Source: a virus
Taxonomy: Duplodnaviria; Heunggongvirae; Uroviricota; Caudoviricetes
Length of the DNA: 4,719 bases
Reading direction: 5' to 3' (one strand)
IMG/VR virus record: IMGVR_UViG_2706794668_000007
Positions 1 through 4,536 of the stretch are shown piece by piece (within the stretch, counting starts at the first letter, position 1; each line of letters starts with the position of its first letter). The position numbers were made by a program, and so were the translations under genes. A model generated the notes under the pieces. It ran no database searches and was not told the DNA's origin. It saw nothing but the letters and a program-made list of their open reading frames with translations.

Positions 1-760
1 GGGGAATATCTCCCCGGCAGCCTTCAGGGAAAAATATCATCAGATGGCTGCTTAAAAAAAGAACAAATGGTAGTGTCCGCTATTGCCAGTACACCTCAGG
101 ATAGCGGTCATGTGATGCCGGTTTCCCGGTAACTCAGCACCGGTATCTGAGTCAACGTTTTCTCTACTGGGTCATTTCCGATACGCCCTGCCTGCTGACA
201 GGCTTTCATCACATCTGAAAATATAGCACCCTGACTGATACTGTAGTACCTAAGGTTCCAGAAACTGTGATGTATCCGGNNNNNNNNNNNNNNNNNNNNN
301 NNNNNNNNNNNNNNNNNNNNNNNNNNNNNNNNNNNNNNNNNNNNNNNNNNNNNNNNNNNNNNNNNNNNNNNNNNNNNNNNNNNNNNNNNNNNNNNNNNNN
401 NNNNNNNNNNNNNNNNNNNNNNNNNNNNNNNNNNNNNNNNNNNNNNNNNNNNNNNNNNNNNNNNNNNNNNNNNNNNNNNNNNNNNNNNNNNNNNNNCCAT
501 GGTTCTTTCCACCATCTGAAAAATAATTCTTTAAAATACCTGACATGTAATACAGAAAAAACACAAAACCATACCTTAAATAAAAACCTGATTATCAAGC
601 AGATATGCATGGATAAACTACAAGACGAGATATAAACCACCCTGCATTTAAATAAACAATAAACAACATCAGAAAAATAATTCTGCTCTATGGTTTACAT
701 TCAAAAATATCATTTATACTTTTCAGAACATCACCAGCAAGGCATAAACAAGGAAACTAA

Positions 761-1387: not shown

Positions 1388-1464
1388 TGGCGCGTTGTAC
1401 TGGATTCGAACCAGTGACCGATTGCTTAGAAGGCAATTGCTCTGTCCGGCTGAGCTAACAACGC
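1388..1464 (-). tRNA. tRNA-Arg (anticodon UCU), 77 nt with encoded CCA
   Basis: Reverse complement of 1388-1464 is GCGTTGT TA GCTC AGCCGGACA GAGC A ATTGC CTTCTAA GCAAT CGGTC ACTGG TTCGAAT CCAGT ACAACGC G CCA. It folds into a full cloverleaf: 7-bp acceptor, 4-bp D stem, 5-bp anticodon stem, loop CU-UCU-AA, 5-bp T stem, T-loop TTCGAAT. Its position downstream of Q matches the rare-codon tRNA clusters (ileZ-argN-argO type) of Stx-like lambdoid phages. Confidence 0.85.
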
Positions 1465-1750: not shown

Positions 1751-2328
1751 GCCCGAGCGCCAGTGCCGCTTTCACTGTCGAACCCAACCCCATGAAAAAA
1801 TCTGCAATCAGGTCACCCGGACGACTGCTAGCGCTGATTATCTGCTGCAGCATTTCTGCCGGTTTTTCGCACGGATGTTTCCCGGGATAGAACTGCACCG
1901 GTTTATGCGTCCACACATCGGTATACGGCACCTGCACCGTCACGCCAAAATACCGCCGCAGATGTTTATATTCACTCAGCAGCTCCGCATACTGCCGGTT
2001 CAGTGAGGTATACGTATCCACCAGCTGGTGGTGGAGCTTTTCCAGTTCACCACGCCGATGCTTCTCTTCTGCCACCCGGGCAAACAGCGCCTGTAATTTC
2101 AGATAATCGCTTTCATTCGGCAACTGCCACTGACCGGCACTGAACCAGTGCGACACCATGTTTTTCTTTCCTGTGGCATCTGCAATCTGTTTTGCCGTTA
2201 TCCCCAGGGCAGCTCGCGCATCACGAAAGTAAGAAATCAGCGGGGCCATCACATGCTGTTTCAGTGCACTGCCCTTCGCCGCATACCCGGCATCTTTCGG
2301 ACGATACGGCCCCTGATAATGTTCCGCG
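1751..2328 (-). CDS. DNA methyltransferase, beta-class N6-adenine/N4-cytosine family (N6_N4_Mtase-like); internal fragment with both ends N-masked
   Basis: The visible 192 aa contain HPCEKPAEMLQQIISASSRPGDLIADFFMGLGSTVKAALALG, which matches the HP-x-x-KP ... GD-x-V/I-x-D-x-F-x-G-x-G-S/T-T AdoMet-binding block of this family. In beta-class enzymes that block is C-terminal, so the catalytic DPPY-type motif should lie upstream in the masked block 2329-2578. The 409-aa frame in the ORF track (1455..2684) is an artefact of reading through N and through the tRNA. Confidence 0.85.
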
Positions 2329-2602
2329 NNNNNNNNNNNNNNNNNNNNNNNNNNNNNNNNNNNNNNNNNNNNNNNNNNNNNNNNNNNNNNNNNNNNNNNN
2401 NNNNNNNNNNNNNNNNNNNNNNNNNNNNNNNNNNNNNNNNNNNNNNNNNNNNNNNNNNNNNNNNNNNNNNNNNNNNNNNNNNNNNNNNNNNNNNNNNNNN
2501 NNNNNNNNNNNNNNNNNNNNNNNNNNNNNNNNNNNNNNNNNNNNNNNNNNNNNNNNNNNNNNNNNNNNNNNNNNNNNNGTGAACCCAACGCATGAGCAGA
2601 TG

Positions 2603-2631
2603 GCTGGTGGGTGCCCCTAACACCCACCAGC
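2603..2631. repeat. Perfect 11-bp GC-rich inverted repeat (gctggtgggtg / cacccaccagc), 7-nt loop; function unknown
   Basis: Arms are exact reverse complements and extend to 12 bp with g2602/c2632. It lies just downstream (minus sense) of the 2646-2673 terminator and upstream of the methyltransferase. No U-tract follows on either strand. Confidence 0.6.
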
Positions 2632-2645
2632 CGCCCATTTACCAC

Positions 2646-2673
2646 AAATAAAAAAGCCTTCACTGCGGAAGGC
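2646..2673 (-). terminator. Rho-independent terminator overlapping the 3' end of the 65-aa ORF
   Basis: Minus-strand RNA reads GCCUUC-CGCAGU-GAAGGC (6-bp stem) followed by UUUUUUAUUU (plus-strand 2646-2655). Confidence 0.6.
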
Positions 2674-2857
2674 GTCTGTAACAACCGAACTGATAGTCTG
2701 CCAGACCCGCCATAACCAGCTGGGTCAGTATTAACTGGCAGCGTTCGCGTGAAAGGTAAGTATTCTGCGCTATCTCCCCGACTGTCGCCGGTTCGGTAAC
2801 GCTTAATTCATTAAACACCACTCTGGCGGTTTCTGTCATATCCTGCTGTTTTAGCAT
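2660..2857 (-). CDS. Hypothetical 65-aa protein with a winged-helix/HTH-like segment
   Basis: ATG at 2857-2855 is preceded by AAGGAAAAG on the minus strand. The segment PATVGEIAQNTYLSRERCQLILTQLVMAGL has the hydrophobic/Gly/Ser pattern typical of winged-helix DNA-binding domains. It sits between two intrinsic terminators inside the Q-dependent late transcription unit, directly upstream of the methyltransferase. Confidence 0.5.
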   Translation of the reverse strand: MLKQQDMTETARVVFNELSVTEPATVGEIAQNTYLSRERCQLILTQLVMAGLADYQFGCYRRLPQ

Positions 2858-2977
2858 GTCTTTTCCTTTTCCGGTTAACGTGACACACCAATAACTCTTG
2901 TCGAAAAAGCCAGCAAGCTGAAAGACAGGTATTCACCGCCACCAGCGCGTTTACTGTACTGACGCGATTTCAGTCAT

Positions 2978-3001
2978 AAAAAACCCGCTCGGCGGCGGGT
3001 T
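2978..3001 (-). terminator. Rho-independent terminator about 40-60 nt downstream of the pR' start (tR'-like)
   Basis: Minus-strand RNA reads AACCCGC-CGCCGA-GCGGGUU followed by a U-run (plus-strand A-run 2978-2983). Its position shortly after the late promoter matches the short terminated pR' transcript of lambdoid phages. Confidence 0.6.
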
Positions 3002-3036
3002 GTAGAAACTCTTCTAACGTCAGGCATAAAACGCCC

Positions 3037-3076
3037 ATCGTTATGACGAATTTACCACAGATTCCGGAAAAATCAA
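3037..3076 (-). promoter_or_regulatory. Late promoter pR' with lambda-type pause element (qut region)
   Basis: On the minus strand: -35 TTGATT (3076-3071), 16-bp spacer, extended -10 TGgTAAATT (3057-3049), then 6 nt and AACGAT (3042-3037). The run GGTAAATT-N6-AACGATGGG is nearly identical in sequence and spacing to the lambda pR' -10 and sigma70-dependent pause element as I recall it. It lies immediately downstream of the Q stop codon. Confidence 0.6.
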
Positions 3077-3081
3077 CCTTG

Positions 3082-3703
3082 TTACCTAGTTACCTTTTTT
3101 AACTGCCGCTCAGCCCATGCTTCTTCAATATCAAACCGGGTCACCAGCGCATCATAAAATTTCTTAACTGTTTTTTCCCATGACGCGCGTGTTATCTGGT
3201 TTGTCACCTCGCATATAGCATTAAATGCCTCCGTTGATGGTAGTCTTTCATAGCCACGACCACCACAACGCTGGCAGTCTCTGATAACAGGCATACCACG
3301 TTTTACCGACTCTTCACGATGAATGGCGACACCACGCCCACGGCAATCCTTACAGGCGGTGGAAACCTCACCCTTTCCGCCACACTCCGGACAGGCAACT
3401 TTTACCACCTCCCTGACTTTTTTCCATTCTTCCCAGTAAGACGGATACACACCTTTCGTACACTTTGCCCATACCGGCGGCTTACCATCCGGATACTGGA
3501 CCTTGTTTGTAAAAACTACGCTTTCAATAAATTTTTCCCCATAGCAACAAGGGCACTGCTTTTTACTCGCTGCGCTGCGGGCATAATCCTCAAAAGCGTA
3601 CGAAGCCATAATGCGCATCACTACCGGTTTTATTTCTGCCGGAAGTTTTCTCAACGCCGCCACACGATCGCACCGACTGAGTGCATAATCTGCCAGTAAT
3701 TCT
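3082..3703 (-). CDS. Q: Late antiterminator Q (lambda Q family), C-terminal 206 aa visible; N-terminus in N-mask
   Basis: The C-terminal region aligns with lambda Q as I recall it: AFEDYARSAA, CKDCRGRGV...DCQRCGGRGYERLP (Cys4 zinc-binding module), and ...FYDALV...KKVTR ending. An extra Cys-rich segment (CPCCYG ... CPECGGKG) is present upstream of the conserved finger. Stop TAA at 3084-3082; last codon is AGG. The N-terminal 19 aa of the track ORF (3954-4011) overlap rusA and are a read-through artefact. Confidence 0.85.
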
Positions 3704-3953
3704 NNNNNNNNNNNNNNNNNNNNNNNNNNNNNNNNNNNNNNNNNNNNNNNNNNNNNNNNNNNNNNNNNNNNNNNNNNNNNNNNNNNNNNNNNNNNNNNNN
3801 NNNNNNNNNNNNNNNNNNNNNNNNNNNNNNNNNNNNNNNNNNNNNNNNNNNNNNNNNNNNNNNNNNNNNNNNNNNNNNNNNNNNNNNNNNNNNNNNNNNN
3901 NNNNNNNNNNNNNNNNNNNNNNNNNNNNNNNNNNNNNNNNNNNNNNNNNNNNN

Positions 3954-4279
3954 AGACGTCCACCAGATACTGGCTGACCACGAACGATATTGATTTCATC
4001 AAACTGCTCATCGTCCATTAACACTCCCGCATGTGTCAGTGCATCCAGTGGTGCTTTCAGGATATTGTCCAGGTCACGACGGCGCTTATCCGGTGGCTCT
4101 GCAATAATCTTTATCGCCAGTCTTCCGGACAGGCTTAATTTCAGTCGCTGCTGACGGACAATAAGCGCCACATCCCGGCGATAACGCTCACCGGCTTTTG
4201 ATACAAAATATGTGTTGTCACGACGTCGCCAGTAAGTATTCACCGTCGGCGGATAAGGTAAAATAAACTCATGGCGCAT
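3954..4279 (-). CDS. rusA: RusA-family Holliday-junction resolvase, N-terminal 108 aa visible; about 12 C-terminal codons masked
   Basis: PPTVNTYW...DKRRRDLDNILKAPLDALTHAGVLMDDEQFDEINIVRGQPVSGGR matches E. coli RusA (PPSNNRYY...[30 protein letters not shown]...VTKGGR) as I recall it, including the catalytic acidic cluster. ATG at 4279-4277 overlaps the upstream stop by one nucleotide (TGATG). The 229-aa track ORF is rusA plus read-through across N. Confidence 0.8.
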
Positions 4280-4536
4280 CAGCGCAGCACCTCCTGCACC
4301 AGTTTTTCAAACTTTCCGACTCTGGTTTCCAGCTCTGCCACACAGTCCACCAGCTCATCTACTGCTTTCTGTGCGCGATGCTTCGCCTGCATCAGTTCCC
4401 GAAGCGCGGGTACCATATCTTTACGGATAGCGTCTTTTGTTATGCCCGTTTTTTCGAGTTGTTCAGCATGACGCAGCATTTCCTGCGCGTGTTTACGCAA
4501 TTGTTCAGGGGTAAAAGTCATTGTCTGGTTGTTCAA
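4279..4536 (-). CDS. Hypothetical nin-region protein, 80-85 aa, charged, predicted helical/coiled-coil; start ambiguous (TTG at 4536 or ATG at 4521)
   Basis: Open frame ends one nucleotide into the rusA start, which suggests translational coupling. GGAG lies 8 nt upstream of the TTG at 4536. The first ATG (4521) has no obvious Shine-Dalgarno. No family recognised. Confidence 0.55.
   Translation of the reverse strand: MNNQTMTFTPEQLRKHAQEMLRHAEQLEKTGITKDAIRKDMVPALRELMQAKHRAQKAVDELVDCVAELETRVGKFEKLVQEVLR

Follow-up and report, generated by a model that had tools for sequence, protein, structure and literature searches.

A small winged-helix gene and a candidate RNA leader ahead of an M.EcoGII-family methyltransferase in the late region of a lambdoid prophage

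Introduction

What is a small protein with a DNA-binding-like fold doing directly upstream of a DNA methyltransferase in the late operon of a phage? The question is raised by a 4,719-nt stretch of the IMG/VR virus record IMGVR_UViG_2706794668_000007 (Caudoviricetes), referred to here as the window, in which an open reading frame (ORF) of 65 aa with a helix-turn-helix (HTH)-like product precedes a methyltransferase gene. Positions are numbered along the window, and the genes of the late region are on its minus strand. An earlier note on this DNA likened the pair to the controller protein and methyltransferase of a restriction-modification system, and proposed that methylation is tied to prophage induction and protects progeny DNA. 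We confirm the layout, a small ORF followed by a methyltransferase inside the late operon behind the Q antiterminator and the promoter pR'. It is real and strongly conserved, and the small protein is predicted to fold as a winged helix. The likeness to a restriction-modification controller breaks down, as none of its hallmarks (Xre fold, nuclease partner, C-box) is found here. We think it likely that the locus is the first late-operon cassette of a lambdoid prophage and comprises an accessory winged-helix gene, a structured leader RNA and an M.EcoGII-family methyltransferase. The analysis establishes what the parts are and how they are ordered, that the small ORF is a coding gene, that synteny is conserved, and that the leader is conserved with covarying base pairs.

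Identity of the Methyltransferase

The methyltransferase fragment visible in the window contains the motifs FFMGLGST and HPCEKP. It is identical to M.EcoGII at 171 of 191 aligned residues (89.5%), the reference being the sequence in the supplement of PMC11551740, a machine-read text in which a few mismatches may be reading errors. Full-length proxies come from E. coli TOE17 (L001; 349 aa, 94.8% identity to M.EcoGII) and from an IMG/VR contig with an intact enzyme (L085; 352 aa), and both match PF01555 (N6_N4_Mtase; E=2e-44 and 8e-42). The DPPY motif (residues 35-38) was seen in these two proxies only, the window being masked there. The motifs are ordered DPPY, central target-recognition domain (TRD), FxGxG. 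At residues 160-237, the TRD region and its HTH fit the description of M.EcoGII (PMC11551740). PADLOC returned only generic MTase_II models for this enzyme. Phage 1720a-02 (H29/L003), which shares 94% DNA identity with the window region, carries an enzyme very similar to M.EcoGII (PMC5778455).

M.EcoGII and M.EcoGI, non-specific adenine methyltransferases acting on DNA and RNA, from prophages of E. coli O104:H4 C227-11, are likewise prophage-borne orphan enzymes of the beta class (PF01555) with 349-352 aa (Murray et al. 2018, PMC5778455). M.EcoGII, at 349 aa, methylates adenine in any context, slows growth when expressed and is silent in the lysogen, and its presumed role is to overcome host restriction (PMC5778455). 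Such homologs were classed as 'nonspecific', and as inactive in culture, in a methylome study of Shiga toxin (Stx)-producing E. coli (PMC6602927). Judged by these sequence comparisons, the methyltransferase of the window is an orphan beta-class N6-adenine enzyme of the M.EcoGII/M.EcoGI family. It is not Dam-like. Classification by target recognition, which had been proposed, does not apply, because a non-specific family has no target-recognition motif to classify. The present copy differs from M.EcoGII in motif I (window 1751-1790), where Leu replaces Ser at the x of FxGxG (FMGLG; FFMGLGST vs FFMGSGST). The same Leu is found in three IMG/VR contigs (L082, L085, L086), and both glycines are retained.

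Sequence Hidden by the Mask

The two genes are separated in the window by a mask (2329-2578) that is 250 N long, and the earlier note took this figure as their separation. The corresponding flanks are 464 nt apart in TOE17 and in the Stx2a phage Stx2_EH1910 (L002). The gap is likewise 464 nt in two IMG/VR contigs (L082, L085) that match the window with 100% identity on either side of it. The mask has been shortened, and it hides ~464 nt, not 250. The two contigs diverge from the window further downstream of the cassette, and we used them as a proxy for the hidden sequence, not as its source. By these proxies, the hidden stretch is made up of a 69 nt piece of the spacer and the first 131 methyltransferase codons, and the true distance from the small-ORF stop to the methyltransferase ATG is 150 nt. 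Since the gap is only 150 nt, there is no nuclease or other gene under the mask. No nuclease gene was found in the window or in the relatives that are annotated or were scanned for ORFs, and none is present in any of ~180 related loci. The masks at 1513-1750 and 3704-3953 differ in length from TOE17 by 13 nt and 5 nt. N-runs in this record do not preserve the hidden length, so distances across masks are unreliable.

The Small Winged-Helix Protein

The small ORF is a real gene, maintained by purifying selection. When E. coli is compared with other genera, its non-synonymous difference (0.08-0.15) is far below the saturated synonymous difference (0.65-0.88), and a Shine-Dalgarno (SD)-like AAGG/GGGT is located 8-11 nt ahead of the ATG in all loci. 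AlphaFold2 (AF2) predicts a confident, compact fold with three helices and a C-terminal beta-hairpin wing, i.e., a winged helix. The protein matches PHROG 331 (E=1e-37), to which no function is assigned there. In Pfam it reaches only sub-threshold winged-helix matches, e.g., TrmB (PF01978) with 18 bits against a cut-off of 25.6, and it matches no PADLOC model. Homologs at E up to 1e-3 form 334 clusters, of which the 120 listed are from Escherichia, Shigella, Salmonella, Klebsiella, Citrobacter and Buttiauxella. Among the matches listed, the names given by NCBI are often 'TrmB family transcriptional regulator' or 'hypothetical protein'. The family is tiny: at 50% identity it amounts to 84 clusters in a set of 1.84 billion proteins. 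Apart from two long, repetitive matches that look spurious, all are stand-alone proteins of 22-114 aa. Our literature search found no paper containing the peptide motif of the small protein.

Could this be a controller (C) protein that binds the palindrome downstream of the small ORF, or another operator, and so sets transcription of the methyltransferase? As Xre-type HTH dimers, C proteins act on C-boxes at the promoter of their own gene, which is transcribed together with that of the nuclease. The likeness to C.PvuII, C.AhdI and C.Esp1396I is that a small protein with a DNA-binding fold is encoded just upstream in the same orientation, here conserved with the methyltransferase that follows immediately; the TrmB name borne by many homologs could be read the same way. 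The differences are more extensive. The fold is a winged helix and not Xre-type, the Pfam matches are all sub-threshold, and no locus has a nuclease gene. Conservation is poor (60-70%) over the 200 nt that precede the small ORF, 2858-3100 holds no inverted or direct repeat resembling a C-box, and transcription would start from the candidate pR'. The spacer before the methyltransferase has no promoter-like site. The leader and methyltransferase also occur without the small protein, which is itself acidic to neutral. We consider a controller very unlikely, and prefer to see the protein as an accessory of the cassette.

Linkage of the Two Genes

A scan of species-representative genomes with the small protein resulted in 24 loci in ~12 genera. 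An M.EcoGII homolog (59-100% identity) is located downstream in 23/24 of these, across a spacer of 147-154 nt. The exception (L021, 4001-4400), in an Enterobacteriaceae metagenome-assembled genome, is a decayed cassette: the small ORF is N-terminally truncated, the leader is still recognizable and the methyltransferase is deleted right after it. The reverse search, from the methyltransferase, recovered the small ORF in 78/80 close viral loci. Of the other two, one locus begins where its contig ends and the second is interrupted by an N at the junction of a rearrangement, and thus 78/78 assessable loci have it. A divergent set of 80 viral loci, with methyltransferases 63-86% identical to the Plesiomonas enzyme, was more varied. 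A homolog of the small protein was detected by an iterated hidden Markov model in 49 of them, and ~12 more have a different winged-helix-like small ORF in the same place (helix 3 xxFI[IV]EQLxxxG), giving a winged-helix-like ORF in ~61/79 (~77%). The cassette is found behind several unrelated Q types, and in hosts other than E. coli it directly precedes the holin and lysis genes. The association of the two genes is strong but not obligatory.

More distant M.EcoGII-like methyltransferases (L115, L119, L128-L130, L168, L172, L173, L179, L181, L184) have other ORFs of 63-113 aa located ~160-190 nt upstream. These ORFs share a helix-3-like motif (FIVEQLKVLG, AFVLEQLAQ), and their loci are without the leader as modeled. 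It may be that the winged-helix partner predates the leader and is the more general of the two.

A strong association could also arise if the small gene were an independent late gene (a moron), merely co-inherited with its neighbor. The small gene comes with an SD and a terminator of its own, no domain fusion joins it to the enzyme, and ~18 divergent loci have the terminator, leader and methyltransferase but not the small gene. Set against this, the adjacency is kept across the ~12 genera, behind the differing Q types and ahead of differing downstream genes. It is kept while the protein falls to 41% identity and the spacer still measures 147-154 nt, and also where the leader is shortened and the gap is 79-102 nt. 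Distinct winged-helix-like ORFs hold the same place in the more distant methyltransferase lineages. In every recovered locus the family stands beside this methyltransferase or its remnant, a count that covers the recovered loci and not the neighborhoods of the 84 clusters. We find mere co-inheritance unlikely, though worth keeping in mind, and favor an accessory that belongs to the methyltransferase module.

The Leader RNA

The spacer between the two genes contains a leader of ~130 nt that ends at the methyltransferase AUG (full element L085:491-622 and L001:3974-4104 on the minus strand). The length of the spacer is constant, 147-154 nt in 26 loci. Its identity to E. coli is 74-83%, whereas the small ORF reaches 63-78% and the methyltransferase 66-78%, and it is the best-conserved part of the module although neutral sites are saturated. 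The leader folds with a minimum free energy z-score of -4.1. In Rfam 15 it reaches no gathering threshold (the best match, P26, is on the opposite strand and scores 24 bits vs a threshold of 36), and nothing matched the leader in six divergent loci.

A covariance model built from 25 leaders placed the element with its end at the methyltransferase ATG in 56/80 divergent loci, and the following counts are for the 56 distinct leader sequences from this search. The apical hairpin P1, which is the palindrome of the window, has compensatory changes in 11/12 pairs and is 93% paired. The small hairpin P4 has compensatory changes in 5/5 pairs and a further helix, Palt (UUCGCU:AGCGAA), in 5/6. Overall, 87.5-87.8% of cells are paired, vs at most 41% when the partners are slid. 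Over all leader sets the values are 87.5-94.9% and at most 47%, with compensatory changes in 27-32 pairs. In distant loci Palt is extended to 9 bp (UUCGCCCGU:ACGGGCGAA). The arms of P1 read GGCUGGUGGGUG, GGCAGAAGAGUG, GGCGUACAUGAUG, GCGCUGCAGCAUG or GCGCGGGACGAG depending on the lineage. An abundance of G-U pairs is seen on the sense strand alone, a pattern consistent with an RNA that is transcribed as part of the operon.

Since the P1 arms change freely and with compensation, the palindrome is an RNA stem and not a sequence-specific operator. The earlier note had put forward 2603-2631 as a site to be bound by the small protein; arms that covary as RNA pairing are unlike a protein-recognized DNA site, which also counts against a controller. 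By the same evidence, the 150-nt spacer is most improbable as a DNA-level site, such as a promoter or recombination boundary, or as a small coding sequence. In E. coli, an in-frame ORF of 32 codons does begin at the invariant AUG of AAAUGGGCGG, but in loci of Salmonella, Klebsiella, Buttiauxella and Plesiomonas it runs for just 3-8 codons before a stop. The stem substitutions are compensatory, the frequent G-U pairs are limited to the sense strand, and a consensus scan of the spacer found no promoter-like site. A candidate spacer peptide (MGGWWV..., with tandem Trp codons) was rejected, as its reading frame is not conserved.

The leader can also be drawn with alternative pairings. The invariant 5' AUGGGC can pair with GCUCAU or GCCCA, and AAGC(G) with UUCGCU or with GCUU beside the start codon. 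In Enterobacteriaceae, pairing is good for either set (94.9% and 92.7%), and we regard them as a possibility only. Our literature search found no paper linking a structured RNA motif with prophage methyltransferases. The leader is a candidate new cis-regulatory RNA motif that is apparently undescribed. Within Rfam 15 and our literature search, the leader and the winged-helix partner seem new.

Terminators and Late Promoter

A second terminator-like hairpin, downstream of tR', overlaps the end of the small ORF. Its arms covary across loci and genera (GCCTTC/GAAGGC, GCCTCC/GGAGGC, CTGCC/GGCAG). The stop codon of the small ORF is within the loop and 3' arm of this hairpin in the window, and in the loop in most relatives (L006-L027 compared). 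A ribosome terminating at this stop would melt the hairpin and could couple read-through to translation. One may therefore ask if the small ORF acts in cis, its ribosomes melting the overlapping terminator and gating transcription, with the protein itself of minor importance. The stop codon is inside the covarying hairpin in all enterobacterial loci that contain the winged-helix gene, and the terminator is at the same place where the ORF is missing, both of which suit such a role. The strong purifying selection on the amino acids and the confident predicted fold show that the protein itself is selected, and a Q-modified polymerase should ignore the terminator anyway. We judge an ORF acting mainly in cis to be highly improbable. 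Where the small ORF is missing, UGUGGAAUGGGCGG still comes immediately after a terminator hairpin with a U-run. Thus, the constant core consists of the terminator, the leader and the methyltransferase, with the winged-helix gene as its accessory.

The hairpin at 2602-2632 has no U-run and was not called by the terminator scan. The candidate pR' scores 8/12, under the threshold of the consensus scan, and it lies, as in lambdoid phages, after the end of Q and ahead of tR'. A 17-nt direct repeat (2970-2986 and 3020-3036; TCAGTCATAAAAAACCC and TCAGGCATAAAACGCCC, 82%) extends over the tR' region and over the first part of the pR' transcript. Weak Rfam matches in the pR'-tR' region to Trp_leader, isrK and STnc370 were far under threshold and were discarded.

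Genomic Context

The features of the window are collected in Table 1.

Table 1. Features of the 4,719-nt window in the order of the late region.
Feature	Position	Strand	Remarks
85-aa ORF	4536..4279	-	Upstream end of the gene order
RusA	after the 85-aa ORF	-	PF05866
Q antiterminator, C-terminal part visible	3703..3082	-	PF03589 (Antiterm), E=6e-37; N-terminus under mask 3704-3953
Candidate pR'	3076..3049	-	TTGATT, 16-nt spacer, TGG-TAAATT; read by eye, putative
Intrinsic terminator tR'	3001-2982	-	AACCCGCCGCCGAGCGGGTT then TTTTAT; terminator scan
65-aa winged-helix ORF	2857..2660	-	PHROG 331; RefSeq WP_000917767.1, 'hypothetical protein'
Second terminator-like hairpin	2673-2656	-	GCCTTC-CGCAGT-GAAGGC and TTTTTT; terminator scan
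Leader RNA, 5' part visible (62 nt)	2640..2579	-	Starts with invariant AAAUGGGCGG; a further 69 nt masked
Palindrome, apical hairpin P1 of the leader	2602-2632	-	Perfect 12-nt arms
Methyltransferase, 192 codons visible (residues 133-324)	2328..1751	-	N-terminus (DPPY) and C-terminus masked
tRNA-Arg (tct)	1464..1388	-	ARAGORN; last of the Ile/Arg/Arg tRNA cluster after the methyltransferase
iraM (anti-adapter protein; name from L001)	AT-rich segment, 761-1096 and 497-760	+	

The tRNA-Arg is the downstream boundary and lies outside the module. E. coli TOE17 has the order RusA, antitermination protein, hypothetical protein, DNA-methyltransferase, tRNA-Ile/Arg/Arg and IraM. The Stx2a phage Stx2_EH1910 has the same order with stx2AB after the tRNAs. 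The Q homolog is annotated as 'antitermination protein' in the former, where it has 273 aa, and as 'quuQ' in the latter. The region is partly matched in 3162/5426 complete E. coli genomes, the closest of which is ~97% identical to the window, and in 45 phage records that are mostly Stx2-converting. In Stx2a/2c/2d-converting phages the cassette is located between Q and the tRNAs/stx. There is no stx gene in the window, and the iraM segment occupies the place where Stx phages have stx2AB. The late region of the window is a non-Stx version of the late-region scaffold of Stx phages.

Comparison with Known Systems

The regulatory architecture is that of pR'-tR'-Q antitermination in lambdoid phages, as found upstream of stx (PMC7547250). 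To this, the methyltransferase cassette adds two layers of its own, the second terminator and the leader. Neither the upstream winged-helix gene nor the conserved leader is described in the M.EcoGII papers (PMC5778455, PMC7544214, PMC11551740).

The com-mom operon of phage Mu offers a suggestive parallel, as there too a small-protein gene and a leader hairpin, which governs the start site of the modification gene, precede a toxic late DNA-modification gene. The 62-aa Com protein, encoded upstream, binds the leader hairpin and permits translation of mom, which is expressed in the late lytic phase only. Com, however, binds RNA as a zinc-finger protein, and mom does not encode a methyltransferase. 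The small protein here differs in being a winged helix, RNA binding by it is hypothetical, and some loci lack the small gene. By analogy, the small protein, leader and methyltransferase might form a three-part post-transcriptional module in which the small protein binds the leader and switches its pairings, so that the toxic methyltransferase would be translated late only. We hold this to be a rather doubtful proposal; such leader binding would resemble that of the winged-helix domains of SelB on SECIS RNA. The leader itself may also be a new ligand-sensing or self-regulating riboregulator.

A Proposed Working of the Cassette

The arrangement of the parts suggests how the cassette might work. 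In the lysogen, tR' would stop the transcripts from pR', and the second terminator would catch those that leak through. Once the prophage is induced, Q-modified polymerase would pass both terminators, and the enzyme would then hypermethylate replicating phage DNA before packaging, allowing the progeny to escape restriction. The methyltransferase lacks a Shine-Dalgarno sequence, and the leader may set, limit or gate translation of the toxic enzyme. The winged-helix protein would, as our best guess, modulate the output or activity of the methyltransferase, e.g., by binding the leader RNA or the enzyme. The tie between methylation and induction and the protection of progeny, as supposed in the earlier note, agree with the reports and proposals for M.EcoGII (PMC5778455). 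That logic is right but is already the published view for M.EcoGII. The new components seem to be the winged-helix partner and, especially, the structured leader.

Several points weigh against a three-part cassette of this kind. The evidence for a functional link between the winged-helix protein and the methyltransferase is synteny. The ~18 divergent loci retain the terminator, leader and methyltransferase without the small ORF, and we found no fusion of the winged helix to a methyltransferase among the 84 family clusters. The family is acidic to neutral (median pI ~5.2-5.6), which is unusual for a nucleic-acid binder. For the leader, a closed/open switch between the P1 base with P2 and Palt is near-isoenergetic in Enterobacteriaceae only, and divergent loci have not kept the variant that closes the start, for which reason we claim no switch. 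The N-terminus of the methyltransferase is taken from contigs that match the window over the visible flanks only, and expression, methylation and activity of this copy of the enzyme are presumed from its sequence. Synteny argues for a tie of the winged-helix protein to the methyltransferase, and the ORF-less loci, the acidic charge and the lack of fusions argue for accessory status. It is a conserved accessory of the module, dispensable in some lineages, and not a restriction-modification controller.

M.EcoGII is a widely used reagent, e.g., in MadID, chromatin accessibility mapping and tools for RNA N6-methyladenosine (m6A), and it is a striking case of a phage methyltransferase that is dangerous to its own host. 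How a phage silences M.EcoGII and then deploys it is left unexplained in the M.EcoGII papers. The small protein and the more constant leader are concrete, testable candidates for this control. Should the cassette affect late transcripts, or how Stx phages escape restriction, this would have practical relevance.

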